A DNA stretch of 64,000 nucleotides from Amoebophrya sp. A120 (taxonomy: Eukaryota; Protista; Dinoflagellata): NCBI GenBank assembly GCA_905178155.1, contig CAJINV010000008.1, forward strand, positions 124,001-188,000, given 5' to 3'. The notes beneath the pieces were generated by a model. The model saw only the letters and a list, made by a program, of their open reading frames with translations. It made no database searches and was not told the DNA's origin. Positions 1,491 through 61,500 of this stretch are shown piece after piece. The translations under genes and the position numbers were made by a program. How positions within the stretch are numbered: position 1 is the stretch's first letter; each line of letters starts with the position of its first letter.

Positions 1491-3319
1491 TGCGTGAGAA
1501 GGCTGTCATGATGATGCATGATGACCATGACGATACTACACATAGCAAAAACGCCCTCGTCCGCGAAACGTCAAGAGAACCTAAGTGCAACTCCGTGTAG
1601 TTCTTGCACAAGGCAAGGCCACGACGCTCCTTTTCTTTTCATAGCAGTGCCCGACTGAGTTGACCTCCGCCGGTGTCCACCCCAGCAGCACGGAAGAGAT
1701 TTTTCCGGTCTTTTGTGCCGGTGGTCCCGGCAAGCTGATGCCCCTCCACCGCCATGATTCCAGACAGCCCTTTTTTTTAGGTGAATTTCGATGAGCCACC
1801 GCCTGCTGCAAACTCGCCAGATATCGCTGCCGTCGGTACGAGGTCACGACTGTGGCTGTGACTGCAACCGCTTCATGAATTGCTCACTGTAGCTGATTGC
1901 GGAACGCGTGGCAAAGGACACTTGCCCACCACATAAACCCACAATCCACAACAAGCCCTGCCGCAGAGGGCCAGGGATCTTCTCCCGATCACGATGTGGT
2001 CATGTTGGTCATTTTGGGAGGGTGTAGGCTTGACGACATGAGAATAACGAAACCTTCACATAGATAGAGCATGAAAAGGATATCGATATCCGCGACCCAC
2101 ATGAAAAAACATAAATGCAAACATTCAATTTCAATTTCAATTTATTCACTTCACTTCATTGGGTGGCGGTTGGCGGTGGCCTCTTCGCATGTGGCTCACT
2201 AGACCGGGGCAGGGAACGACGCAACGCTATTTGTTCAACAGCGAGACTACAACCCTATTTGTTCAACAGAGGAGTCGAAATGAGAGGAGACTCGATCTTT
2301 CAGTCCTCGCGCGCGCAGGGACTAACTGCGCGAGGCTCTTCGTTTCAGCGCCCTTACTCCGGGGTCGCATCCGGAGTGTACTGCTTCGTGAGGTCCCAAC
2401 CCAGTTGCACTATCAGAATAATCCATAGATGAATACGTGCGTGCACAGCTCGCTGAATTAGAAGATGGTCAACTACAATTCCTTCGCCTTTCGCTCACCC
2501 TCTTGTTCATATCAATTCCACTCTTCGTGTGTTTCCTTGATTCTTGGCGTGTCGTGATGAAGAGCTCCTAACAAGTTCTGGAGCCAGAACCCACGGCACC
2601 CAACGCCAACATCGCGCGGTTGCATGTCTTCTCGTATTTATTAATTTACATGTCAGCGAGACATAAAGTCCGTCTCCCATCGCATCCTTTCATTTTTTTT
2701 TTACGCGCGATGCCGATGGCTCGCTTTGTCGTGCTACGACCGTGGTTTGGCGTACAAGCATGATACCGAACACGCAATAATTTATTGACGAAACAGCAGC
2801 AGCACAAGCAAGACAATGTTGCACTCCTGCATCACCAGCAGCATCGTCATCAGGTACGGTGATTTCTTTCGCGACCCGCCAAGCGGTACATTAGCCGCAC
2901 AGTTAGTTATTTGGAAACAGCGGACTGCAGCAAGGATGACGCAGTTAAGTAATCGTGATTCATCTGGGCGGTAGAGCGATTATGAATTCAGGGGGGAAAA
3001 TAAACGAAACTCCTTACCTTCACTTTAGTCTGGGAACAGACACTGAAAATATGAGTCACAAGCTTGATGGGGTAGGGCTACTTACTGTCGAGTCAGTGAC
3101 AGTGTCGTGCGTCCCCGCCTTTTCCAACGGACACATAATAGGAAGAGGGGATCATATTTGATTTGACAACTGATGTGTTCACGGTTACGGGCAGAAATCG
3201 AAACAATAACAAACTGTATCAAAGTGCAAAATTCGAAGTTCGAAGGAAGACCTGAAACTTCCTAGAGTACGATGAGGTGTCTTATTGATTCAGCGAGCAG
3301 TTGCTTTCGACCTTACTTA

Positions 3320-3960
3320 CTTAGCCAGTCCGTCGCGTGTCTGCGTTTGACAAACAAGAGAAATGAGTCGAGGTAGCTTTGTTCCACTACTCTCCGCTCC
3401 TTCTTGTACTTCTTTCAGACCACCGTCAAAAAGGTAGTTGGATCTTTCCAATTTTCCCGCTCCTTTTCTGCAGCAGTTCCGGTTTCGTCATCGTCGTCTT
3501 CGTCCTGATATATAAATTTTCCGACAAGTTTGTGCCTGTGAAGGCAACAGAAAACGAGATTCCGATTCGGCACGAAAAGAAAAAAGAGGCATGCTACTGC
3601 TTACAATGGTAATTCTTCATTTCGCATGGAGGTTCGCGAGTAGATGCGGCAGGGATAGGCTTATGTTGTAACAGCTGTGCTCGTCGTCCTGTGTCCATCA
3701 GGCGAAAGTGAAAGAATGAGTACCTGTAGTTTCTCAGGACGAGCAGATGCGAGGTCGTGGCTGTCGTCCGTGTCTTGAGATTCGGCGCGACTTCCAACAG
3801 CTGCATCTTCTTCACCGTGGCTCCTGTTCGGGCAATTACAGACAAAAGCATGCGCAGCGGTGCGAGGACTCGTAGCGGTGATTTGCTGTCCCGCACCAAT
3901 ATCGGTGCTTTGTTGCAGAAAGGATCCGGAGCACGAGCACCCGCCTCCGGCGTCTACTGT
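3320..3960 (-). CDS. Possible exons of an unknown protein, or a C-terminal extension of the LPMO gene
   Basis: ORF 3594..3899 joins through a GT-AG intron (~3535-3723) to an exon reading HKLVGKFIYQDEDDDDETG..., which ends at a GTAAGT donor near 3320. Frame choice is uncertain and the exon contains an in-frame TGA at 3415-3417. Confidence 0.3.
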
Positions 3961-4687
3961 AGAGTTCGCGCCGCCGGCGTCTCCTGCTGGAGCGTTTGAT
4001 TCACCCGCCCCTGGAGAGTTCGCGCCGGCCGGCTCTTATACATAGGGAAGCTTGAGCTTCATCAACCTGAACCTCTTCGTGAAACTTATATAAATGAATC
4101 ACAGTCGCAACTCTCTGTGACAAAAATCACAATTTTGTACATGCCCATGTCCCAAGTAAAAGTGTCGGTGCCGCTCTTTCTTCCTGCCTGAGAATCAGTT
4201 ACTCGTCGAGGACTAGGAAGGACGGACCAGGGCGTATGTTTTCTACATAAAAGATATCAACCGTACATATACAACATAAATGAAGACTGAGACCCTGACA
4301 TACTCTTTGATGGCGTACACGTCGCTCACGGAAAGTGCGCCAAGGTAATCGTATCAAAGGTGCTACGCAACGAACGAGGAAGGTTGAGTTTTCGTGTCTA
4401 CTTCATAACGGCTGGAAGTCCGCCGGGGGCGACCAAGGTGTTCCGCCTTGGCCACTGCCGCTCCCGTCTTTTGACGGCAAATGAATCGAAAACTATGCAA
4501 GCCAAACCTGTTGCGGCCGTAGCGCGTTCAAATTTGATCTACAAAACGGCATAACAAACAAATGGAAATCATATCATGACGTCATAGATGCAAAACGGGG
4601 CTCGTCGCTTGCTTCTGACATTGTCATTCCACCAATTCATTATGATTATCATCGGCAAACGTTAAGATCATTGACTTAAATTCATTT

Positions 4688-6703
4688 TTATGAGTGGCGG
4701 AGGACGAAACTCCTATACCGTGTCAAATTCAGGTATAACATGATTCCCCGTGTGCGAAAATCGAAATGCTCGCGTGCATCAGATGAAAACGAAATTTTCG
4801 TTTTCAAAATTTTCGTTACGAAAATAAGATTTTTTATCGGCTTCATGAGGTTTGGTTCTAAGCATACAGGCAGTCCCTTCGGCTCTGGCCATTCTGTTTG
4901 TGTGGATCCATCTGACTTGAGCACCTGGACGTCCGCACAATTGCGAAACTCTTCGGGGTGTGTTTCTCCCTGGTGACACATTTGGTTCAAAGCCACTCCA
5001 GTCCACTTCATCGTTGTCCCCAGCGTTTCCTCCTTGTTCCACTCCTGCCATTCCGCGCTGCTAAAGTAGTCGACCATCTTTTGATCTGGAATGCAGGTGT
5101 TTGAGGTCTTTCAGACCCATTGCAGCGTGCAATGTTGGCACTCGAAATTACGGGGAATGTCGTAATACATGAAATGGAAACTTTGCACCTGTTGGTCATA
5201 TTGCAGATCCGTTTCCGCCTGCTCATCGCTCGAAAACGTGTGCTCTCCCTTTTCCAGTGGAGGCGTGTACCACCGGCCTTCCTGGCCCGCAAGTCGGGGT
5301 TGGCAGTCCGCATCGGACTTTTTGGCACCGCAATTCCGGAGGCTCGGGTCGGACCGCCACAGTGGATTTTCGTCCAGGGCTTTTTGGGCTTCGGCGTTGG
5401 GAAGTTCGTGGTCGATCAATTTGTCGGACAGATAAAACTCGTAGAATCCATTGTGGTGAGTGCCGATGCCGATTACAATGTGATAGGCCAGACCGGCTCG
5501 AAACTGATTGGCGTGGGGACTGGACAGTGCAACAAGGGCGAAATCCACGTCCGTCAGTGCGTACCGCATGGGCTGCTGCTCAAAATCGTCCGGGTCCCAC
5601 TTTTGCGACGGATCTTTCGAATTCACTTTCATCCCATCGGCACCGCACTGCTTCGAGTTCTGCCGAGGATCGCCGCAGAGCCCCACGGAGTTGTAGTCTG
5701 TGGGCAACTTGTCGTTCGCGTTAGGCCCACACTTTTGTGAAAGGAAATTCTTGATCGACATTGAATGTGTCCGAGTGGTTACGGCAACTGCAATAATTTT
5801 CACGAGTACAACACGGCAAGCGGTTCACCTGCGTGGTCTGCGATGAAGGGCCTAGCCTCGTTCGCGATTTCTAACAAGAGGAATCCATTTGCATTTGCTA
5901 GATGCATCACATAAATGAGGAGCTATTTTCCATTTTTTTGGCATTGACGAAGATGACAAGATCAAGGGCAAATCGCTTTTCTGAATGAGCTAACCAGTAC
6001 GTCCCTCTTTTTGATCTTCGCCTACCTGCATCTGAGGACGCAGCCGCACGGACACACTCTGAATATTCAAGTCGATCGCGATTTCATTTCGCTTCCATAA
6101 CATCTGCATCGAGGTCGGATTGTAGTTGAAAGTGCGTCCTTCTTTGTCCGGCCATCCGTTCAAGTTGAAAGACATGTCTTGGAAGCTACTGCTATCCTGT
6201 GCAAAAACATTCCCGGCGACCCATGATCACCACGCTAGTACGTGCTGCCGTGTGATGAGATCACGTTCTATGCTGTCAAGAAGTGCGACACTGTCAACAT
6301 GCAAGCATGAGAGGCTTCGTGCAGTTGAAATCGCCCCCTGTCGTGAATCAGCCTCGTCTCTTCGCCTCTCTGTTTGCAAATCGAGGCTGAGGCGATTGGT
6401 TTTGGTTGCACAATGATATTATAGGCCGCATCAGGAAAGGCGGCCCTGGTGTCCGCCCTCATCTGGGACGACATTATGCCTGCACCGCTTGTGTGTCATT
6501 TGGGCAGCATGGGGACGTGTTGACACGGGATAGCTATACGGAGCACTGTATGGCAGGCTCGGAGAGAAAGGGTGCTGGTTGTACCACAAATTCCGGCTGA
6601 TTGGCACGGCGAGCAAGGAGTGCGAGCTTGCGAATATTACCACCGAAGGCTGCATAAGCCATACGTGGTAAACGAAAGCAAAGTTTGCAGGTAACTGCAC
6701 CAT
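4688..6703 (-). CDS. Secreted lytic polysaccharide monooxygenase (AA10/AA15-like) with an in-frame TGA
   Basis: Signal-like N-terminus followed by HSLLAVPISRN (His1 at 6620-6622). Further motifs: GLCGDP, FRAG...GTHHNGFYEFYL, CQHCTLQWV(TGA)KTSNTC, PEEFRNCADV. ORFs 5111..5803 and 4688..5077 are in the same frame. Exons ~6524-6703, ~5995-6196, ~4830-5787; 3' end uncertain. Confidence 0.8.
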
Positions 6704-8268
6704 CGGTCGTTCTTTGTCACCTCCAATATTAAAAACAAGAACGATAAAATAACCGCACTCCAGTACGTAGTCTCCTGGCGAAGCACCACAGCCTCAAAAA
6801 ATGTTCTTTTCGTCCGGAAGCAGCTTTACGGAATAAAAAAAGACCCAAACTCAAACCTGAAGATGAAGGGGTGCTTCACGTCACTTCGGCGGTGGCTGGC
6901 TTACTAGCTTTCTTTGACCCTAGCCAGGCGGCAACGGGGCCAGAAGCAACTAAATAATGGCGCTTGGGAAAGGCGTGCCTGAATCTCAATAACAATAGGG
7001 CACTGCGCTTCTTCTCCTGTATATAATCCTGTGTCATTGAGTAGTACTTGTACGTAGTGGTAAGAAATATACGTATCAAACCCGATAATTACTGGTGGCT
7101 TTTTTACTTTCATGCCAAAAACTGGACGAAATGAACAACGGAACTCTATTGATGACTGCGAGGACATAACAGCCGAAGGCTGGCACGATAACGATGGGAC
7201 GACTTCGATTTCTTGCAATGTCCGGACGAAAGAGGCTGGAGAAGGAGAACGAAGGCCACGCAAGGCAATCAGAAACAAAAATGACAGTGGACGAAAGAAG
7301 GGGAAGAACATCGACATCGTTGTTGCAAATAGAAACTGAATGCCACTTTCTTATGGTCGTCTTGGTCAAGGAAAAGATTGCAATTGAATTTGAAGTTGAA
7401 CTTCTGACCTTGGTCTCTACCGAACGTTTAGTAATATCGCTGAACTACCACAGGAGCAGCGGCAGATTTATATTTTGCAGTCTCGCGGACACGTGAGACG
7501 GGATCAGTTCCATACAGGTATAGGTAAATTAATTGCGGGATTCCTGTACGAGTACCGCTAGTGCTAGTCGCAATACGTGTTGGTTGAAGGATTCAGAAAA
7601 GTGTTTGTGTTGTAGTACGTGTAAAGCGATTTAAGATACGAGCGCTGAGTTCTTTAGTTGAAACTTGGCTTCCTGGATCTCCAACAGGAGCAGGGGGGAT
7701 ACAAATTACTTAATTCTGAAGCTCGATACAGCCGTAAATTCAGCTGCCGCGGATTGAGGCACAGCAATGGGGCGGACACATCACTGGCCTGATTTTTTTA
7801 CATTTGTGTCTCAGTCTTGGCGAAGAACGCTTGATAGTTTTTGAATTTATTTTATTGTTTATTCAAAGAAAACGAGCAAAAGGGATAACGGTAGCGCAAT
7901 ACAGATGAGTTTCTTCTTTTACAATGAGAATGGCTCTACAAAGAGCACTAGCTATTCATATCGAGGAGTGTCGGATACCACAGATAATCTAGTTTAGCAT
8001 GTTCAACAAAATAACCAAAGTAAGTCCTTGATATTGTTTTCAGTTGAAGTGTCGTCAAAGTCATGCCGCACAACTGGTTTATCAATCTCTATCTTCACGG
8101 ATCACGGTTGATTCTGCCATCTTCTGGGTGAACCGAATGGGTCTGCTAGCTCCGTCTTGAAGATTTGATCTACGCACTAGTACCAGCAGGACGAGTACGT
8201 GAAAGATGTAGTTAGATCCACCTCGCAATAACTGCAACAAGTGCTGTTATTTGATTTTCGTGCGGTCG

Positions 8269-11200
8269 CTACAACTGATGTGGATCCTGGGACGCTTTAC
8301 TCCTGGACATCGAACGCAGGCTTGGCTGTCGCAGCTTGGATGTGACAGGAGGATAATCAGATGACCCTTCACCAGAGCCATGTCGCCCGCGCACCGACCT
8401 CGCGGGTCCCGCGCTGGAGTGTTGCATTATAGTGGATCCGCCCGTCACGCGGGGGGGCCTTCCAAAAGCTCCTTTCGGTGGCGAAGCCCGCATCAGTGCG
8501 TTTTTACTTGTCCCACCGGTGCCCGAAGCCGCAGAGAGCTTCCGCGGCTGATCGGGTTTCGTGTTCTTAGCGGCCGTCGTGCTCAGCGCCTTGCTTTGAT
8601 GCTGGCCTATTTGCGCAGCGTTGTTCAAACTCTGACTCAGGAAGTTCAAGTTGTGTTGCTGAGACGACGAGGAAGAGCTAGCATGCTGCATCGGCGGTTG
8701 AATGTTCGCCATCGGGTCAACATTCTCGTCAGTGTTGCCACGCGATCGCGGGCCAGCACTGTTCGATCGGTAGTCGCGGTCGCGGCTATTATTGCTGCCT
8801 TGGCGCGAAGAGGACTTGGGGGCCTGAGCACCACGTGCTGCCGCTTGTCCTCCGCGGTCGCGGCTGTGACTCCGGAAGTCACGATCTCGACTGCCACTCC
8901 GAGACCGCGCAAAACTTGTCTCGAGATTGAAATTGTTGTTCAAACCGGTACGGCTCGTGCTTGCCAGCGGATTCCTGTTGTGTCCCGGAAAGTAGGACGT
9001 GCCTTGCGACGAGTATCCTCCACCTGAGGCTGGCCCGGTGCCAGCAGAGGCCTGCTCGAAATGACGACCCGAAGAACTAGTTGCTGCTCCAGCCCCAGAG
9101 TTCACGTTCCTGCCATTCGGTTTCAAAACGACCGGTGGCGCACCGTGGGGGGTGTTGTGGCGAAGGTTCGAAGTTGATGCGGCGGATGAATGGTTCACAC
9201 CACCACCACCACTTCTGCTATTGGCGATCGGCTCGATTGCCGGTCGTGTCCGCGCGGAAAAGCCGGCTGGCTGTAGGGCTGCCGCGCTGGGATTCTTGCT
9301 CAGAGCTTGCGGTCTCGGACCCCGGAGCCCGGTATCTATCCGCGGCGATACTTGTCGGACGAATCGAGCAGTACTGTTTGGGCCACGATTCCCGTTCCGT
9401 GGAGAGTTGGGTCGTTGAAACGAAGCGTTCAGCTGACTGCTCTGCTGGGCGGTGTTCTTCTGCTGTGCAGAGGAAGAGCCCGCCGTCCCTCGCCGTGCTG
9501 CAGGGGCAAAGTTGTTACTTCTCGACGGAGTGCTGCTCGCGTTCGCCGGTGGTCCTCCCTTCGGGGCGGAATTCACCCTACTCCCAAACGCAAAGTTCTG
9601 CTGGGTCAGATTGATGTTGGATCTGTTGGCAGTTGCGCTCCTCTTCTTCCCGCGTTCTGTGCTTTGAGGCCGGCTGGGAGCGCCGGCTGGAACGGTGCTG
9701 GCTGCTGCTTTGAAGGCAGTCGCAGCCGCAAAGGGCTGGGACGAAACTTTATCTGACGAAGGTCGCGGTGACGAGGAGAGTCTGCTTCGGGCGGAATTCG
9801 GTATCGGTTCGTTTTGTGAGGATCGACGTCCCTCTGCTGACAGCGGAGCGGTTCCGAATCCGATCAGGTCGACGAGCCCCGCTCCTCCAGAAGCAACGGG
9901 AAGCTCCGCGACCGCGGGCACCCCTTCCGCTCTGCCACTGCCGCTGTGGCGCGGCGCAGCCTGGTCTTGAAGACGTTGGTCCCTGGTGTTGCTTGGCGAC
10001 ACCGAGGACATTTTTCTGCTGCTAGCACCACTCCGCGCGTTCGGGCTCACGCCACGCGTCATCAGATCGCAGTGCACCGCCTGCACTTCTGGCTCTCCAG
10101 CACTTGCAGTTGGCGGAAACAATGTTGCAGCTGCTGCTTTCGGAGACGCATCCCGACCGCTAGCGCGACCCTCTTGTTGGTCAAGCTCTGGCTCATGACG
10201 AGCATTACTTGATTCAGCAGGAGCGAGAGTGTTTGCTCCAAAGCCAATTTGCTGTGCAGAACTGGACGCAGCCAAAGGCGAAGGCTGGCGGAAGCTGGAC
10301 CGACCTAGTGGCACACGTGCTGGCGAAACTGCGTTGCGGAATGGCGGTTTGCTTTCCTGTCGCAGCGGCCCCGAACCTGCTCTCGCACCGGCGGATATTG
10401 AACGCGGCGCGGAAGCAGACCCTGATAGTTGAAGAGAGAAAATGATGGCAAGGAACTGCAGCCGGTGGTCGCAAGAACACACATCGTCAGAATAAAATAC
10501 TATTTTCATCTGACTGTAGAGCGCATTCATTCTCATTTGAAATTGAATTTGCTACAATCCCACCCTGCACCTATCTGCTCACTAGAAGAACAACTACGAC
10601 TGCACAAATTGACCGCAACTAACAACTAAGCATCGAAGTAGAGCGAGTATACAAGAGCCGGCACTTGTTCTCACGACCACGGGCAGTCATTCTATGGCAA
10701 CATAAGGAAGAATGTGGACTACAAAGTCAATGTAGAAAAAAATAGCTGCCTGGTGGCAACAAGAATACGTGCGCGCTCTCCGGAGTGGCTTCTGGTTCTG
10801 GGCCGAGATGCCGCTCGATGGTTGTTTGGGATATTTTCCGCTGGGTTCAACAGGTCGTTGCTGCCACTCCGACCACGTCCGAAGGCCACGCCGGCTGCCC
10901 CGCGGGCCGTCGGCGTAGCGCCGCGCGAGTAGGTGATACGCTGGGGCGGCTGGTACGTGTCGAAGCTTCTACTACGCCCGCGCACAACCGCGCCACCGCG
11001 GTTCATGGTGCTCGAGGATGCCGGTGCCTGTGGCACGGGATGGCTGAAGTCGTTGAATTTTTTCAGCGTGCTCACTTGGTAATTTTTCGGCACCGCCAGC
11101 TCCTCCATGCGGGCGCGCTGTTCGGCGGCCGACCTCTTCCCCTTTGCCTTGGAAGACACAGCGGCTCCTGTCTTCGGGCGAGCAGTGGAAGACGTTGCCC

Positions 11201-14200
11201 CACCGGTGCCCACAAATGCCGGCTGATGCTCGTCGCGGCCACCTGGTTCTACCTCGAGTTCGTTCGTACGCCGGGGAAACGGAATCTCGGATGATCCAAG
11301 GAGTTCGTTTTTAATGTCGTGGACACCAGAAGACCGCAGCTTGATGTGCGCTGTGCTGCCGCTTGCTCGGCGCATGCTGGCCCCTGCTTCGCCGGCGCCG
11401 GTCGTGCCTTTACTAGCCGCTGGGGGCGGCAAAATGTCATTGTCATTCGCACTGTCGAGAGCTAGCGGGCTGCACGCGTCGACGGTGGCATTCGCCGCAC
11501 CTTGCAGGGGCGAAAAGCCTTCGATCATACTGAGGTTTGGGGTTTGAATGGCCACTTGCTTGTTCTCGGTTCTTTGCTTTCGCCTCCGTACCAGAAACAC
11601 TTTCAGCCAAGCCACCGTCAGGAAGAGCTGTCAGTTTCAAATAGTGAATGTTTCTTCTGAGTTAGAGATACATACAAATACGTTCAGTTTTTGGTCAGGA
11701 CGACGTGGTGCTGAAAGCATGGAAACGAGGTTGTACAACGAACTTCTACTTTTTACTTAGGTTTAGTACCTGCACGCTTCTTTTCGCCTGCTGCCGCTGA
11801 TGCAGGAAAGCCGCACTGCTTTGGCGTTTGCGCTGGTGAATGGCTTCCTGCTCCAGCTTCTTTGCTTCGTCCAACTGTTCCTCCCAAAGCTGCTCCTCCT
11901 CTCGCTCTCTTCGGCGGCGCTCTTCCGCAATTTTTTGCAGCTCCGAACTGTATTCCGCTCGCGCCTGTAGGGTTCCGTCCTGCTCCTTGAGGGCTGCCTG
12001 CAGATGCTCTTCCAGCTCGCGTTTTTTTCTTTCTTCGTACTGACGCTTCTGCTCCGCTGCGACTGCAAGACGCTCCGCCTCTTCCTTGGCACGGCGTTCT
12101 TCCTCTTCCCGGGCCAGCCGCTTAGCCTCCTCGCGTGCGAGACGGGCCTCCTCTTCCCGCTTCAGGCGCTCCTGTTCCTCCTGTGCACAGCGCTTCCTTT
12201 CCTCTTCGGCGCGCTGCCTTTCTTCCTCTTCGCGCCGCCTGGCCTCCTCCTGCCGCTTCCGCTCCTCAATTTTTTCCTTCTTTTCCAGCCGCACATTGCG
12301 CATGTACATCTTCAGCAGTGATATGCGAAATATCTCGTGCACGAACGTCTGGACACGTGCTCTGTGGCGCGCCGCAGTGTACAGGCGGGGCCGCAGATTC
12401 TTTGTGATGTATCGCCGGCCGTACACCGTCAGTAGCAACATCCGCCACAAGTGCCGCAACAAACGCTGGGCGGCGAGCCGAACCCTTGTGCGGCACAACC
12501 ACGCGTCTAGCCCGATGGCGACCCGGACCGCCTTGTGGACCTGTTGTCGTGGTATTTTTTATTTTTTTGCCTACCGAAAGAACCGAATGCAGAGCGGATT
12601 TGGATTTCATGATTCAAAGGAGCACAAAAGACCCCACATCCGAAAAATCTTTGCGTTTCAACATCTTCTACATCTTACCCTGCATGCCAGCGTTGCAAGC
12701 CGCTTGTTCCTAAGAAATATCCTCGCGCGCCCCGCCCAGCGCATCAACCGCAGATACGTTCGCGTGACGCGTACTAGACCCATTCGGATCGCATTTTTCC
12801 GCACGTTCTTCATTATGTTTTTTAGGTGGATGCTGAACCGGATGACGTTGAGGCAACGGCGAAGCTTTTTCTTCCAGACGAGTTTGCGCAGCTTTTTCAG
12901 CACTGGTCCACTGGCCTCCGCACCGGAAGCCTTAAGCGCCTCGAGCACCGCCATGCGGCCCGCTTTGAGGAACAACCGCGTCGTGCCCAGGGTCCACTCC
13001 CGCAGCGGGACGTCAAAGGCAAGCATCAGGGACTCCACAAACATGCGTGGATCCGTGTTTTCGCTAAACTCGGGCGGCAGCAGCGGCGTGAATCGGTGGT
13101 AGAGGTCCTCAAAGGGGCACCGGTTCGGGTAGCCGTCGCGCATGACGCGCACCAGCTCGATGGTCCCCGATTGCACCATCTGCTCCAGAATGGTCTGCCC
13201 CTGCCAGTAGTTCGGCCGCTGCTCGTTGTTCGGCTTGAAGCAGCGGATGTAGTGCAGGGAACACTTGTCCAGTGTCTCCATCAACTTCTCCAAATTCGTC
13301 ACGTAGCTCTTCCCGATGGTCTTCGCCGTCGGGTTGTCGGCCAGGTTGCACGCCTCCTCGTCCTGCAGCTGCTGCACCAGCGGGTTCACGCTGTCCCGGA
13401 TCACCTGTTCGGGTCCCGTTTTCATGCGCGTGTTGTTTTTCTCGATCCAGCTCCGCGTCTCGTACTCCACCTCACCCGCATAGTGCCGGATGACGAAGCC
13501 GGCGTTTTGGGCCAACGCCTGCTCCCGCCCGGCGCGTTGCACCGCCTTCTTGCCGATGAAGGGAAACTGCACGTTTTTGCGCCGCTCCTTGTGGATTTTT
13601 TCGCAGAACTTCTCGTCCGTCGCGGTTTGCAGTCCCTTGTTGGCTTGCTTGTTGAAGTCGTTCAGCTCGGCCAGCACAAAGCGGACGTCGTCCAGCACCG
13701 GCTGCGCGTCGGGGAGCGGGATCGGCTTCCAGGTCAGACCCTCGCGTTCGTACATGGTCTGCTCGGCCACCAACACTTTCTCGACGAAGAACTGCTGCAG
13801 CCGCTCGTTCGCCAGGTTGATGCACAGCTGCTCCAGGGAGTTGGACTGCAGCTGCTCGAAGCCGTAGATGTCCAGAATCCCGATGTAATTCCGGTGCGCC
13901 TCGCCCTTGCTGGTGTCCTTGTATGCAAGAAAAAAACGGCGTAAGTGTAACTCTGTGATGCAGAACATGCAACAGAGTTACACCTGTCATGCCAAACGAC
14001 CATGAAGTCCTCTTTTCGTGTGTGTTTTCCCTTACGACCCACGCATGACAGGTTTTCTCTGTCATGTAGAGCATACTTGTGATGCTGTCAGCCAAAGACA
14101 GTTACACTAACACAGTTTTTTTCTTGGATACCTTGACCGCACGGTTTACTTTCTCCACCATCCAGTCGAACAGCCGGCTGTAGAGGATTTTCATCAACGA

Positions 14201-16406
14201 TTGCAGCATCCCGTTGGCCTGGTCCTTCGTGTTGTGTTTCAGGCAGATCGAGTCCTTCATGTGCCGCGCGATGGTGTTTTTGGTCGTGGTCAAGTGGTCG
14301 TACAGCGTCACGTCGTCAAACCCCGCCTGCGCGCAGGCGTAGTCGAAATGCTCCTTGTTCGCCATCTCCAGCTCGCCCTCGATGCCGTGTTCCCGGTCCT
14401 TGAACCGCACTTCGCCGAGGTGGATCAACGCGGCCAGCACGGAGAGCAGGTCGCCCTGTTCCTGGTCCTTCACGTTGACAAAATCGAGGCTCTGGATCAG
14501 CACTTTGTAGTTGTCCGCATCGTCTCGCGCCTTCGCCCGGGTTCTCAGCAAGTTGTACTCACCGTCTGGGAGCAGAAAGTAGTCTTCCAGGTTTTCCGCA
14601 CCCGCGAAAAACTCGTAGAAAACGTGGTACCTAGTAGTGTCGTGTGTGTGTGCGCATTTTGGAGGGAAACATTTTTGAGTACTTTTGTAACTAAAACAGT
14701 TTTCGTTTTTATTTGAAGGACTAAAACCAGGTCCAGGCATGATCCAAAGCGACTAGAGTACACCTACAGCTCCAAGATCCGAGAAAAGCTGTAACCGAGG
14801 AGGCGCAAAGATTTGCAGCCACTGCTCACTGCATCGAAATCAAATCAACAAGGGGTACGTTCGTTCGGCTTCGGCGCTGTTCAGTACGCGGCTGGCCTCC
14901 AAGAGGTATGTACGGACCTCGGCCCCCACCAAGCTCCCGACAGCGTTGAAGCAAAGGTTATTGTATTTGCCAAACCTCGACGAGTTTCCTGTTTATCGAA
15001 TTATTTCGGATTTTTTTGGAGCTGATGTGATAGTACTACCGTAGAAAGTAGAAATGCTATCTATAGCATGAGCACCAAATACAGTCCATCTCGGCCAAAA
15101 ATCGAATACTACGCCTGAGTGTCTTGCAGTTGCACCTAAGCTATTTGGGAAACTACAACTAGATGGTTTGATCGTGATGACCAACAACGAAAAATCTACC
15201 ATTCCTGATAGTTGTTGCGTTTCCGAATGACTCTAGCAAAGGATTCGCCGCAGAGAGAATCTTCTCTTGCAAGGAAGCTGCTTGGCTCTGTTCCGTGCGA
15301 GAGCGCTCGCCGAGAAACTTCATGACCATCTTGGCCGTCTCCGTCTTCCCGGCCCCCGACTCCCCCGATATGACCATCGCCTGGCTCTCCTTGTCGCAAA
15401 GCAGTTGTCGATAGGCAAGATCAGCCAGGGCGTAGGGATGCGGCGGTCGCTGGTGGATGTTGGTAAGGTTTTTGTATTCCAAGCGCTTCTGGTCCGTGTC
15501 AAGGTAGACAGGCTTGTAGGGATTCACTGCAAATAACACCGCCCCCGTGAATGTGTAAATTTGGTCCTCACAATACCGGACTCGCAGGTTCTCCAGGATG
15601 TTCGCTTCGTCTAAATGGGTCAGGCTTGTGCAGTCGGGCTTCCCCACCGCAACGGCGGTTCCCACCCGATTTCGGAAGCTCCCGCTGTTTGACAGTCGCA
15701 GCCCTCCGCTTGTCCCCGTTTTATTGCTGCCAACCGCAGAAGTGCTAGATCCTCCGCCGAGCAGGCTCGTGCGCCAGTTTTTGCTACCTTGCCTATTGTT
15801 CACAGCTTCCTCAGGCTTTGGCCGTGGGAACACTTGCCGGGCTGCTGCAGTCGTGCCAGTACCGAACGCATTCGTACCGGGTGTGCCAGGTCTAGTCGGC
15901 GTGCCAGGCCGCTGTCCGGTCGGCGTGCCAAGACGCGTTGGTGTGCCGGGACGGCCGAAATGATCCGCACCAGCACCGACCTGGAGACGCGCACGCTCGA
16001 TACCTCGTTCGGGATCGGGCTCGCACTCGACTACAAGTGTTGGCAGGGTCTCCACAACGGTACCGGCCAGGTACCCGTGCTCGGGAGCAGAGACATAGAC
16101 TGGATCTCCTACATTGAATGCGGTGGAGGACGAAGCAACATCGTCTACCACATTGTCCTGCGGCACGGGAAGGGACAAAGCAGCGCTCGGCCCCGTACTC
16201 GCATGTCCGCCTGTAGTTGTACCTCCAAAGGCGAACTGTGGCCGTGAAGGGGTAGACGTTGCCGCGCCTCCATTGATACCTGTGTTCGACATCGACGAGG
16301 ATGCGCTGCTTCCACCCCTCTGAAGATTCGAGGACGAAGTGAAAGGGGCTTGGTTTTGTGGAACGGCAAAAGACCCGTTGCGAGGACCTCCTCCTAACCA
16401 CGACAT
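8269..16406 (-). CDS. Unconventional myosin with SH3-like N-terminus, ER/K single-alpha-helix region and long disordered tail (7 exons)
   Basis: P-loop GESGAGKT, switch I NSSRFGK, switch II LDIYGFE, HYIRCFKPN. Introns 14989-15199, 14631-14858, ~13918-14131, 12541-12678, ~11559-11769 and ~10422-10768 all keep the frame. Stop TAG at 8269. Confidence 0.9.
13922..14130. mobile_element. Introner (TIR element), 209 bp, in the myosin motor domain
   Basis: TIR TAT(G/C)CAAGAAAAAAAC.G.GT.AGTGTAACT; TSD CCTTG at 13917-13921 and 14131-14135. Removal restores AVK-DTSKGEAHRNYIGILDIYGFE. Confidence 0.9.
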
Positions 16407-17609
16407 TTTTGCCTAGTTGCAGATGATTTTGATTACTCAGAAAACATTATCGAAATTTGCATTTTTACTTTCCCGTATTGATGTTTGACTTCTTTGATAT
16501 GATACGATAAAGTAAAGAGACACGAGCAGCGATGAAAGAGTTAGAGTTCGCAATTAGAATTCCAGCACACAAAAAGGAACCCTTGAGTCTTCTTCTATTT
16601 CGCATTGGTTTTGGATTTCATTTGGTGTAAGAGGGAGAGCATAAAGAAAAAATTGGTATGTGCGACTTTTCATGCACTTGCACAATTTATTTATTTTTCT
16701 TTAAATCTTTTGGTGCACACCAGTGCGGCGGATCGATTTCATCAACATCAAGAACGAGACACCACACCACCGACGACGAGTAACTACGGAAATAGTTGTG
16801 CGGTTTTCTATTTTGATATTGCGCACAGGTGGCGTTGCTCTCACGACGATCACCGTGTCGACTAACTCTATTTTTTTGGTAACGAGACGAGGGCGTTGAT
16901 TTTCATAGCAACCGGAACCACTGCAACAACTTGTAGTTGGCATCACATCTTAATTAGCATTCCTCCTCCTTCTGCAGCGGGAGCAAGACTATGGTAAGGG
17001 GCCATCCTACTTGCCGAAAGATACATTCAACATCGATGTTCGACAGTCATCACATCTCTTTCTGTATCCGAATTTCGATGAGACTGAGACTACTTCGATT
17101 GTTCGGTTTGTTTTCTTGTGGTCTCGCAGGAATTTTTGCACAAAAACGAACGATCGATGTTTTCGACGAACACATTGAAGTAGTCGCGGTTCAAACGACC
17201 GTGCATCAATTTAGAAGCGAGGTCGACAATAAATCTCCCTCGGCATTTGCTTCTACCTTCTTCTATGGAAGTGGGTTTCAACTTGTTGTGGTTTAGCGAG
17301 CATTGTGAAGTCACATTTAAATTTATTCACATGAAAGCTTTCTTTCTCTAGATACAGCATAGGCTGCACTTTAGATACCGGAGATTGAGATTTCACGTCT
17401 CTCGTTTTTTGAATTGTGTAATGCTAAGTCTATCGATCATCTAGTTTGATCTTTAGAAGCCGGCATCTTGGAAGAAGAAACTAATGAAGTTACTTCCCGT
17501 GCGAGTTTTTTGCAGCTTCTGTTCGTGTTCCCGCCCTTCTTGGCGTCCTCCTCGTATTGCTTTCACACTACAGAGGTAAGAAAAAAAGACTCTTGTTTTT
17601 TCGAGGCAG

Positions 17610-32200: not shown

Positions 32201-33727
32201 CAGCAAGTTCGTCCCTCGGCGACAGGACGGTCCAATTGCGAGCCGTGGCGAACGCGCTGGCAGAAGCGGGTGGTATTGAAGACGAGGTCTGACCAGGAAC
32301 GGAAGACCCGGAGCATGACGTTGCCTGTCCCCAGCGGTCGTTGCCAACCGGTTGCGGCTGCGATGACGACATCATTTGGCCGAGCAAACCGCCGACGACC
32401 GGACGTCGCACCATCGATTTTGCGTCCTTCCCACTCAGTGGGTTGAAGGCCTGACGACTGCTGGAGGAACTGGCCTGCTGGTGCTGCGGCATCTGCTCCA
32501 TTTGTTCAGGTGGCACATCATCGCTCTCGTTCTGGTCCTTCAGATCGCGCTTCACCCGCTCCACCATGCGCACCTGGAATCGGTCGTAGTCCTCCTGCAG
32601 CTTCACGAAAGGCTCGGCCTTCCGCGCGAGACCCATCTTGTAAACGTCTTCGGTATCCTCGAACCGACGCGCTTTCTCCAGTACCGAGGCCCAAGCCATG
32701 TAGAAAAGACCTGTACAACGGAAGACGTTCTTTTGATATCAACTAAAACGATCGGTAGATGAATAAAATAGATCGATGCGACCACTCAGCACAGTTGCTA
32801 GCCCGTCGTCCACTCCTTTGACTCTGTTAAGTGCGCCGCAGTAATAGATGCTGAAAATGAAGCCATCTTTACATGATCAGTGAGTTGGTGGTCTTATAGG
32901 AAAGTAATCGAAATACAAATAGACTATTTGTATTTCGATTACTTTTGAAATAGTTTGATACCGAAGGTCTGCCCAATGCCATTAGCCCAGAGAAATGGAA
33001 ACATATCGACGCTGTTCTTCAGACAATGCTCGCCATACATGAGCCACAGTGTCAAGTATCGGTAGTCGCTCTTGTACCGGGTCTCTGCGAAAAACTTCCG
33101 GGTGGCGCGTTCGAGATATTGTTGAAATTCCATTGGGTGGGCTTTCCGCGTCGTTTGCTGCTGCCACCATTTGGCATAACCGTGCCTGCAAGTTTCATTT
33201 TATGGTGCGGAACGAGTAGAAGCACGTGTACGGGTGCGGAAGAGTACTTCTTATAAATATATTCTTTCAGGTGAGGAGCAAATCAATAAGGAAAAGGAAG
33301 ACATTATGAAGCAATGGGCTGCAGCTCGGGGTAGTCGTAATCATAAAACATATTTGTTCATTTTTGATATCTTCGTCTTCCTGTACCAACAGTGGCACGT
33401 TCATCACATCATACACTCTATCGATCCGGCTTGCTTATCATGCCTTTCGACTTCATCGCTAAGAATGAACAAAACAACGGAACGTCCGACCAGACAACAC
33501 AACTACAGAAAGAATCAGGTGAAATGGAAGGTTTACCATGCGGCCAAGGGGTCCGGCGAGGATTCATTTCTGATATCTGCCTCCCACCGCGCTCGCTCCT
33601 CGTCCAGTCGTGAGTCCTGCTGCTCCGGCTCCTCGTCAAGAACCACTAAGGCAGCAGCGCCCCGTCCGCGCTTCAAGGGCACTATGTTTTCCTTGCATTC
33701 CTCGACCTTGCCGATGTCGAATACCAT
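29202..33727 (-). CDS. MadBub/Mad3-BubR1-like spindle checkpoint protein without a visible kinase domain
   Basis: KENIVPLKRGR KEN box, DPLAAW, TPR region YKSDYRYLTLWL...GIGQTF.LFYMAWA...GLARKAEP, ABBA-like FELFCDDE and FAVYDE, GLEBS-like ISIEEMRA, CD1-like TFATKRAMRDVGALF. Four exons with GT-AG introns; stop TGA at 29202. Confidence 0.85.
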
Positions 33728-58550: not shown

Positions 58551-61500
58551 TCACTTGATCTGGTAGGTTCGAATGATTCTGGCGATAGGGTTGCGGCAAA
58601 GCGGACACAAGGATCCGATGTCGGTACTGCAACTCTGACAGACGACCTGGTGGCCACAATCCAGGATGACCGTATCGATCGGGTTTTCGAAGCACACCTT
58701 GCAGATATTGTCCAGGTCGTCGCCGTGATCCTCCTTCTTTTTCTTCTTCTTTTTCTTCTTTGGTTTCGCGTCCGGATCGTCGGGGTCATGAGGCGTCCCC
58801 GAGGTTGTTCCGCGCGTGTCGTCGAGCTGGTGCTTGGATGGACTGTGACTTAGATCCTTCGAGGATCCCCGCTTGGTCTCGCTCCCAGCGGTGAGCTGCG
58901 CCATACTGGAGCCGCCCGTTTCGTCGAAGGTCTGGCTCATGCTCTGCCGGATGGACTTCGACTGCATTGCCGACTTTTTCGGGGCGTTCAGGTCGATGCC
59001 GCGCTTCCTGGCCTCTTTTATTTTCTCCGCCATCTTTTTCCACTCGGTCTGGAAGCAATTGCCGAACACGCGGTACTCGGGATTGTTCAGAATGTCGATC
59101 AAGCTGCTCAACTCCGCGCTGGGTACGCCGTCCTTCAGCCCCCGTTCGACGTCCTCGCGCTGGTAGCCTTGACTCACCGCCGCACCGGTCAGCCTTTCCC
59201 GCTCCTGCTGGAGGAACTTCGGCATCTCGTAGGGCTGCTCCACCTGCTTCAGCTGGATCTGGGACCGGGCGAGATCCTTGATTTCCTCCGGGACTGACCC
59301 CGGCTTGATGTTTTTCTTTTTGAAGTAGTTGGTCACCTCACGCGGTACCTCGTCCAGCGTGCACATCGCGAGCTCCAGGTAGCTGCGGTCTTTGAAGTCA
59401 GCGAACGGCACGAACTGGACGATATCGCGCTCCATGTACACGTTTTCGCTGGTGGAGTACAACGGCTCCTCATCGGCATCGAGCTCGTCCATCAAAGCGA
59501 AATCCTCATCCCCGACCCCCACAATAATGATCGACATGGGAAATCGGGATGCCCGCACAATTTCGTTGATCGTATCCTGCATGTCGTTGATCACGCCGTC
59601 CGTCAAGATCAACAGGATGAAATACCTGCCAACAGTAGATTTCGTCTTTTACTCCTCGTCAAGGGATCATCGTTCCCAAAGCGGGTGAAGACCCCGTGCT
59701 CTCGTGCGTGCACGGTTCTTTTCAGCCTTTTCCAGAACTGGCTTATGCAATTTTATGACATCTTCCATGTGAGAATGAGAACTGAAAGTGATCAACTGAA
59801 AGCAACAAAGCCAACATGAAATTTGTAGCAATAGTATGAAATCCAGTTTGCTACAAATTGAAGTGAGGACAACTAGGAAATAAAGGAATGGAAATGGCAA
59901 TGGATGGACGACAACTAATATACAAAAAACACGAGCGATCCGAAACTCAGTACTTCATGTCCTCTTCCTGTTCTGGGTCCTTGTACGGCTCGGCCAGATT
60001 TGCCGCCAGACGCACTATTTCGCGAAACTCGGTGGGGCCGTGTAGCGTTACTATTGGCAGTGTCTTCTTGTAAACGTCCACTACTCCTTCGAGGCCATCT
60101 ACCTGTGATTGATCATGATGAAAATCCAACTCATTGAATCAATGCAAAGCAGAGCGCCATTTTGATATTGATGCCATAGCGCGGACAGTTTTTTGTTCGC
60201 TTCTATCTCCTTCATTCCCATTCGTTCACCTTGTAGTACGGCAGCAACGTTACATAAAAATATGTTTTTTGTTACCTCTGGATCGAAGAAGTCGCCGTTG
60301 AGTGCGAAACATCTGCTCGTTGTTGTGTATCCGGGTGGTATTTTGGCACCGAAGCCGTATACAGGATACCTCTTATCACTATCGTAGTGCTGCAAAATCT
60401 CGCAGACTGCCCGTATGGCCATCACATAGTCATTGGGCTCTCCGTCCTCTTCCATGTGGTGCAAGGAACCAGGCTCGGCAGGATCCCCATTGGACCGCGT
60501 GCAATCCACAGCAATGACCAGGTTCATCTCGAGGCCACCGGCTATGTAGTCCAGAAAGGTGTAGCTCTTCTCGATCTTTATCTTGTCGAACTGTGTGAGT
60601 TTGTGTATGTGGAAAGTAGCTGCCTCTTGCGAGGGCTCGGTGAAGGTGACAGATTCAACTCATCGAATACATCAAACAAGAGTAAGTCGGTGGAAAAAGC
60701 ACAGTTATTAAACCACATCAGAAACAAAACTGTACGATCAACTGCCCCATGCACTTCGGCTTTTTCTTTTTCCCTTTCGACCCGGCTGATGCGTCGAGAT
60801 TTTCATACAAGGCCAATATTACAGGTTTCCCGTCTTCGCTCGCGCGCTGCAGGTCTGCCAGACACGTAGTGGCGCTCCCGATCAGCTTGTCTGCTTGTGT
60901 CCGATTCCAGTCGTAAACTTCCACTATTATACTTCTAAACTCATCGCCACGACATAACTGCTGGACGGACAGCTCGGTCTGAAGTAGATGATGTTGTCTT
61001 CTTCATCATGCGAAAGCGATTTTGGAGGTTAAGTTCTTGACCATCAACCTCTACCTCAACATGTCAAATCCTGCTTGTGCATTCATTGTACTGGTACGGC
61101 TGTGCTACGATTTAACATCTTCAGCAGAAACTAACCGAGAAAACGTAAGCCACCTGAGCTATCCCAGTGTAAAAGGAAAAGGATTTAAGGAATCAAAAAT
61201 AGAAAATAAAAAACAATCGAATATTATACCGGCTCCCACGTCGGATTGAGTGTTCGCTTTACTGTCTCTGTTTTAAATACAGGCACTTTCTGCTTAAACT
61301 GATCCTCTTCGCTGAGCCGAACATTTGGAACGGCTCCACGGTAAATCACGACGTAAGGATCGGCTCGGCGGGAGAAAAAATCCATCACTGGAAGAGACTT
61401 GGCGCTGAGCTGAAAACTGCACTGCATTTTCAAAGACTTCATCTCTTCCGCCTGCAGGTGTATCGTCCCGTTGTTCTTGCGCGCATGGTGCAAAATTTCC

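Follow-up and report, generated by a model that had tools for sequence, protein, structure and literature searches.

LPMOs of family AA15 have been reported from Alveolata (PMC5823890), and the Thermobia enzyme TdAA15A (PDB 5MSZ) is the closest described structural relative of the Amoebophrya sp. A120 gene analyzed here. By the residue numbers of Sabbadin et al. 2018 (PMC5823890), His1, His91, and the axial Tyr184 of TdAA15A correspond in the A120 gene to H28, H179, and F348, respectively; its W160 aligns with an in-frame TGA. The A120 LPMO departs from TdAA15A in having an axial Phe rather than Tyr, a Thr at the position of Ala89, large insertions, one lost Cys pair, and the in-frame TGA. An axial Phe is also found in TdAA15B and in chitin-active AA10 enzymes (Sabbadin et al. 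2018, PMC5823890). A literature search on AA15 LPMOs and dinoflagellates returned no relevant paper.

For the TGA, the closest described system is Amoebophrya ex Karlodinium veneficum. According to the accessible portions of PMC6394959 and PMC12005148, in-frame stops occur in about half of the genes of this parasite, with a mean of 13.6 per gene, mostly UAA or UAG, while UGA is the sole stop; its tRNA-Trp has a 4-bp stem, a feature described there for this parasite only (PMC12005148). The contexts of UGA-Trp and UGA-stop are nearly alike, and no nuclear editing was seen (PMC6394959). Other Amoebophrya are described with the canonical code (PMC12005148), stops being present in about 2% of alignments from one standard-code Amoebophrya (Bachvaroff 2019, PMC6394959), and two further papers, in their accessible parts, name only the Karlodinium parasite. 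The eRF1 change from NIKS to RIKS occurs in all Amoebophrya examined (PMC12005148). For A120, the same text reports no stop-suppressor tRNA and 94.7% alveolate BUSCO among its predicted genes (DeMontigny and Bachvaroff 2025, PMC12005148). The terms "stop codon" and "genetic code" were absent from the searched text of Farhat et al. 2021, neither A120 LPMO gene id was listed in one supplementary file of PMC7789003, and literature searches returned nothing about the A120 LPMO gene with the TGA, about A120 recoding UGA, or about NMD in this genus.

The A120 locus resembles the Karlodinium parasite (PMC6394959, PMC12005148) in belonging to the same genus, in having an unedited mRNA in which a UGA replaces a Trp codon well before the 3' end, and in its RIKS eRF1. 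It is unlike that parasite in having a single internal TGA and no in-frame TAA or TAG, in lying beside a gene of 2,285 codons that is free of stops, in using both TAG and TGA as stops, and in having no reported suppressor tRNA.

Gene structure and the TGA in DNA and RNA

The window, meaning the whole 64,000-nucleotide stretch of A120 DNA that was analyzed, carries the LPMO gene on its minus strand, with the following features.

6536..7032, minus strand: exon 1, with 5' UTR, ATG at 6703, leader peptide, and His1; 5' end near 7032 inferred from RNA contig extent; an RNA loose end maps to 6536-6557, and the N terminus matches the public protein P0002
6622-6620, minus strand: His1 (H28), exon 1, in the context SS/HSLLAVPISRN
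6100..6190, minus strand: exon 2, from a contig piece of run X3 and the joint 5730/6100; non-canonical intron ends, which are common in A120
4868..5730, minus strand: exon 3, the LPMO core, with the second brace His, the TGA, and, after it, the final core strand and its axial Phe
5455-5453, minus strand: second brace His (H179), exon 3
5111..5113, minus strand: in-frame TGA, codon 293, at the second Trp of CxxCxLQWxWxTxNxC (W160 of TdAA15A)
4948-4946, minus strand: axial Phe (F348), exon 3, in EEFRNCADV, after the TGA
4409..4489, minus strand: exon 4, 81 nt, frame-preserving, where a Pro/Gly/Ser linker begins; X3 joint 4489/4868
3724..4032, minus strand: exon 5, low-complexity linker; start from an RNA loose end, end inferred
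2925..3504, minus strand: exon 6 (inferred), with the frame end and 3' UTR; 3' end near 2925 from RNA contig extent
3415..3417, minus strand: second in-frame TGA, at codon 534 and likely to have been the original stop; flanks GGTC-TGA-AAGA as at codon 293
3313..3315, minus strand: next in-frame stop, TAA, codon 568, the last of TAAGTAAGTAA (3323-3313)

Minus-strand positions 5122-5105 read CAA TGG GTC TGA AAG ACC, and the window sequence gives the frame C-T-L-Q-W-V-TGA-K-T-S-N-T-C, with the TGA at 5113-5111. From the ATG at 6703, the spliced frame reaches this TGA at codon 293, remains open for 240 further codons to the TGA at 534, and then meets the TAA at 568. As the initial annotation had described, the frame continues past the TGA to PEEFRNCADV with no frameshift. 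An open frame of 240 codons across the later exons has a chance probability of ∼1e-4. The same annotation saw no intron in this part of the frame; this holds around the TGA, which is interior to one exon in the RNA contigs, but the gene as a whole has at least six exons.

According to the RNA joints, four of the five introns (6535-6191, 6099-5731, 4867-4490, and 4408-4033; 345 to 378 nt) have non-canonical ends. The fifth, the GT-AG intron 3723-3505, was inferred from cover, with 348 bases predicted against 347 observed in run X4; 22 GT/GC-AG pairs of similar size exist, and 3723-3505 carries the best splice signals among them. The His in THSMSIK near 5765 was found to be intronic by the RNA joints. 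The element TAAGTAAGTAA (3313-3323, minus strand) supplies stops in all three frames ∼95 nt after the second TGA and also reads as a GTAAGT splice donor; seven such three-frame stop triplets occur in the window.

In DNA, where an error or a second allele had been proposed as the point to check, an 11,412-base DNA-like contig from run X1 covers 2363-13772 with 0 differences, TGA included; X1 is possibly the sample behind the window assembly and is therefore not independent. In RNA, spliced contigs from run X3 and from run X4 are colinear with the exon enclosing the TGA (5730-4868), showing 0 differing letters, 0 gaps, and no internal joint. Among the eleven runs considered, the raw RNA runs X9-X11 gave 0 reads at the locus and so bear neither for nor against the TGA. 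Both runs derive from one sample (S2, study P2), different from that of X1, and their status as RNA is a guess judged from the skipped introns. Because the TGA stands unaltered in the DNA-like contig and in both of the spliced RNA contigs, an assembly error, an overlooked intron, and wholesale editing to UGG can be set aside: the genome encodes this TGA, and the predominant spliced RNA retains it. A sequencing or assembly error is almost certainly not the explanation; the possible identity of X1 with the source of the window leaves it some room, but the contigs from the other sample and study have the TGA as well, which largely refutes it.

Editing of UGA to UGG, one of the two outcomes that the initial annotation favored, found no support in the contigs of either X3 or X4. 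Such contigs drop minor variants, so that editing of a minority of transcripts would be invisible in them, and A-to-G editing occurs in dinoflagellate organelles (PMC6394959). That a minority of transcripts is edited in this way or spliced around the stop is nevertheless highly improbable, given that the X3 and X4 contigs match the UGA-bearing exon with 0 differences and have no joint within 4868-5730 and that no nuclear editing is described for the sister species in the available text of PMC6394959.

The public model of this gene, NCBI/EukProt protein P0002 (Amoebophrya sp. A120), ends at the TGA after 292 aa. It was 100% identical to the query translated with TGA as Trp and was the single match; P0002 is thus a truncated LPMO.

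Family membership and consequences of truncation

A homolog search returned 316 relatives, of which the best 150, minus P0002, were used for scoring columns (n = 149). At the column of the TGA, 130 of these have Trp, 18 have Tyr, and 1 has Leu. The His1 column is His in 100/149 and gapped in 46, and the column of the second brace His, H179, is His in 140/149. The best PDB match by profile was TdAA15A (5MSZ; E value, 8e-18), and a model of exon 3 read with TGA as Trp (pTM 0.78) also placed 5MSZ first in a fold search (Z 10.7, rmsd 3.6, 153 aligned residues). On profile and modeled fold, the gene is AA15-like. The TGA-bearing copy is divergent, and Pfam LPMO_10 gave no match to it. These results bear out the earlier identification of an AA10/AA15-like LPMO with a TGA at the second Trp; the catalytic His residues, H28 in exon 1 and H179 in exon 3, are intact as claimed. 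The leader peptide that precedes His1 is predicted to be cleaved.

A second A120 gene, GSA120T00013826001 (protein P0003), is an intact paralog of 573 aa with Trp at the column of the TGA, an axial Phe, and a 55-residue leader. It was sister to the TGA-bearing gene with a support of 0.999 in a tree of 71 sequences, and the ESM Atlas places it with LPMO_10 clusters. Many of its dinoflagellate relatives carry CBM1. Searches for orthologs in metagenomes and protein libraries returned only P0002 and the paralog, and no closer relative.

The sequence beyond the stop appears as well preserved as that before it. Highly conserved columns were matched at 21/25 positions before the TGA and 10/12 after it, and identity to the paralog was 106/253 (42%) before and 26/64 (41%) after, in agreement with the initial view of an undecayed downstream frame. 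This shared conservation fits a young allele but also fits readthrough. The residues beside the TGA are rare among the homologs (V292 in 2/149, K294 in 3/149), but this does not set them apart: comparably rare residues occupy 21 of 102 columns. A Cys pair that is 99% conserved in the family is replaced at both positions in exon 3, by S188 and A204, a paired loss of a likely disulfide; P0003 keeps both Cys.

In the exon 3 model, the TGA interrupts core strand E197-208 midway and precedes strand E260-270, to which F348 belongs. The axial Phe and the final core strand are encoded but would be present in the product only if the TGA is read through. With one core strand interrupted and the other lost together with F348, the truncated product is, on this model, very likely inactive. 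The model of the truncated 292-aa protein was poor (pLDDT 58), a score not comparable with that of the read-through model because of the shallower alignment behind it.

The same geometry weighs against the idea that the stop is selected, with the 292-aa His-brace fragment serving its own role in copper binding or as a decoy, or with a basal leak providing a low dose of enzyme. Both His residues are kept and the mRNA is expressed, and the divergence of the gene looks non-random, both Cys of the 99%-conserved pair having been replaced (S188 and A204). However, the modeled position of the TGA within E197-208 and the removal of E260-270 count against a functional fragment, the downstream sequence lacks the drift of a long-freed tail, and, among the best 150 of the 316 relatives, none of the homologs flagged by an end-of-protein test ends at the TGA motif. 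A selected stop is accordingly highly improbable.

Decoding of UGA in A120

All genes identified in the window lie on the minus strand and encode channel-like, LPMO, myosin, Mad3/Bub1-like, DUF273, ABCG-type transporter, FkbM, and copine proteins. In the myosin gene (7331-16632, minus strand), the 3' UTR spans at least 938 nt, and the encoded low-complexity tail is very long. A high-copy repeat at 13920-14130, with a summed depth of >20,000 in the bin containing the myosin intron near 14000 (run X1), is probably an introner-type element, and a second lies at 2190-2400, upstream of the channel gene. The copine gene (58551-60659, minus strand) encodes a C-terminal RING finger.

The neighboring genes provided a measure of general UGA usage. 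The myosin coding sequence, with exons taken from an X4 contig and one intron inferred by length, has 2,285 codons, 0 in-frame stops, and 13 Trp codons, all TGG, and ends in TAG. A partial channel coding sequence of 332 codons has 0 stops and 1 Trp, also TGG. Trp is thus TGG at 14/14 positions in the neighboring RNA-defined sequences, which by itself limits UGA to no more than ∼19% of Trp codons. The copine gene ends in a tandem TGA TGA, 8 residues past its RING domain. The many stops of a Karlodinium-type ambiguous code (UAR as Gln, UGA as Trp or stop) were not seen in the 2,285 myosin and 332 channel codons of the window, and a general reading of UGA as Trp in A120 is not supported.

Wider scans of the window had little resolving power. 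A Pfam scan through TGAs in 19 frames (11 of 35 candidate frames plus 8 others; 18 read with TGA as Trp) gave no match spanning a TGA, at low power, and a TGA just before the Mad3/Bub1 match at 32741 is probably intronic. A codon-bias scan aimed at genes interrupted by a single stop was without power: the LPMO site was not in its top 40, and its top rows looked by eye like off-frame or antisense shadows of real genes. No tRNA genes were found in the window.

The context of the stop was also considered. Both in-frame TGAs lie in GGTCTGAAAGA, an 11-mer with only two exact copies in the window. The post hoc chance of at least 8 matching flanking bases is ∼1e-4, or 4e-5 with codon frequencies; chance alone would be expected to place some exact 11-mer repeat in an mRNA of 2.4 kb (estimate, ∼0.8), and only its centering on both TGAs is odd. 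One myosin Trp codon shares 7 flanking bases with this context yet is TGG, from which it follows that the context does not force TGA; it also suggests that the null underestimates contexts like GGTC-TGA-AAGA. The shared 11-mer could reflect chance, a readthrough context, or, speculatively, a short mutation for which the gene's own stop served as template. UGA-CUAG is a known readthrough motif; here the bases 3' of the TGA are AAGA. No 3' stimulatory hairpin was found, the 100 nt after the TGA folding at a z score of -0.45. Selenocysteine was considered for this UGA and rejected: the column holds W, Y, or L and no Cys in 149 homologs, and neither a SECIS-like pattern nor an Rfam family was found.

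Against this background, UGA may be read as Trp in A120 by context or position, as an early or low-level form of the ambiguity of the Karlodinium parasite. The RIKS-type eRF1 would then have a competitor in a near-cognate tRNA-Trp(CCA), which GGTC-UGA-AAGA may favor, and the product would be a full-length LPMO with a length of 533 aa, extended to 567 aa were the second TGA decoded too. The Trp column (130/149), the intact downstream motifs, the 240-codon open frame, the spliced mRNA, and the 11-mer common to both TGAs are all compatible with this, as are the 4-bp-stem tRNA-Trp of the UGA-reading sister species and the genus-wide RIKS eRF1 (PMC12005148). The 14/14 TGG codons and the true TGA stop of copine count against it, as do the low-power Pfam scan of 19 frames, the high BUSCO score and lack of a suppressor tRNA reported for A120 in the available text of PMC12005148, and the slight difference between Trp-UGA and stop-UGA contexts in the sister species (PMC6394959). 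Furthermore, the 33 codons after the second TGA are no more coding-like than 12% of open background windows and gave no match to the paralog tail, 397 of 2,000 shuffles scoring equally high; with no clear signal, their coding status is not supported. Lone stops, moreover, are common in the LPMO family (see below). We regard context-dependent reading of this UGA as unlikely but worth retaining. The broader proposition, that context leads A120 to decode certain UGA codons as Trp despite its presumed standard code, making it a living early stage of its sister's ambiguous code, is likewise unlikely, and a shade more doubtful.

Origin of the in-frame stop

Environmental homologs provided a measure of how often such stops occur. 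Among 80 loci, TGA was found at the studied column in 0 of the 76 having the motif, and a lone in-frame stop in an otherwise intact domain was found in 4/80 (3 of ∼71 distinct). All 739 remaining Trp codons in these loci are TGG. The stops, all in environmental LPMO transcripts, are as follows.

L011, position 906: TGA at a conserved Trp (EEFW)
L018/L019, position 756: TAG, one sequence in two samples
L064, position 750: TGA at a non-Trp site

In expressed LPMO copies, a lone nonsense codon (or an error) is therefore not rare.

Taken with the intact paralog, these observations point to the TGA probably being a recent TGG-to-TGA nonsense mutation in one of the two copies of a presumably secreted AA15-like LPMO in A120. 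The codon is one base off the family residue, and no other lesion is present; of the 63 ways in which a transition could create a stop in the LPMO coding sequence, 13 are TGG to TGA. A single G-to-A transition would have converted the Trp codon, and ribosomes would stop at codon 293, so that the product would have 292 residues and lack both the final core strand and the axial Phe. Such a fragment would keep both His residues but could not complete the beta-sandwich and would presumably be inactive, a loss that P0003 or relaxed selection may make tolerable. The mutation is probably young, as there is no second lesion across 533 codons. Recent nonsense alleles and young transcribed pseudogenes in multicopy families are similar in the single transition, the lack of other lesions, the intact paralog, and the presence of RNA, and differ in that the A120 gene has the shared 11-mer at both TGAs.

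Some observations sit less well with a nonsense allele. At least two, and probably three, exon junctions lie downstream of the TGA, yet the spliced LPMO mRNA is found; the identical GGTC-TGA-AAGA at both TGAs is left unexplained; and the reading of UGA as Trp in a sister lineage and the genus-wide RIKS eRF1 (PMC12005148) argue the other way. The initial annotation had preferred reading as Trp to a pseudogene. The former is possible but less likely, given TGG at 14/14 neighboring Trp codons, the copine TGA stop, the standard code described in the accessible parts of the papers, the intact paralog, and the lone stops in 4/80 loci; for the same reasons, the dismissal of a pseudogene was too strong.

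If the TGA is a nonsense allele, the case is an ordinary one, and A120 still has two AA15-like LPMO genes, one of them intact. Such enzymes may be plausible tools against the cellulosic wall of dinoflagellate hosts. If readthrough is true, A120 would show the onset of context-dependent UGA decoding within a genus that includes a lineage with all three stops recoded, its current annotation would cut proteins short at Trp sites, and the origin of stop/sense ambiguity would become testable in culture.
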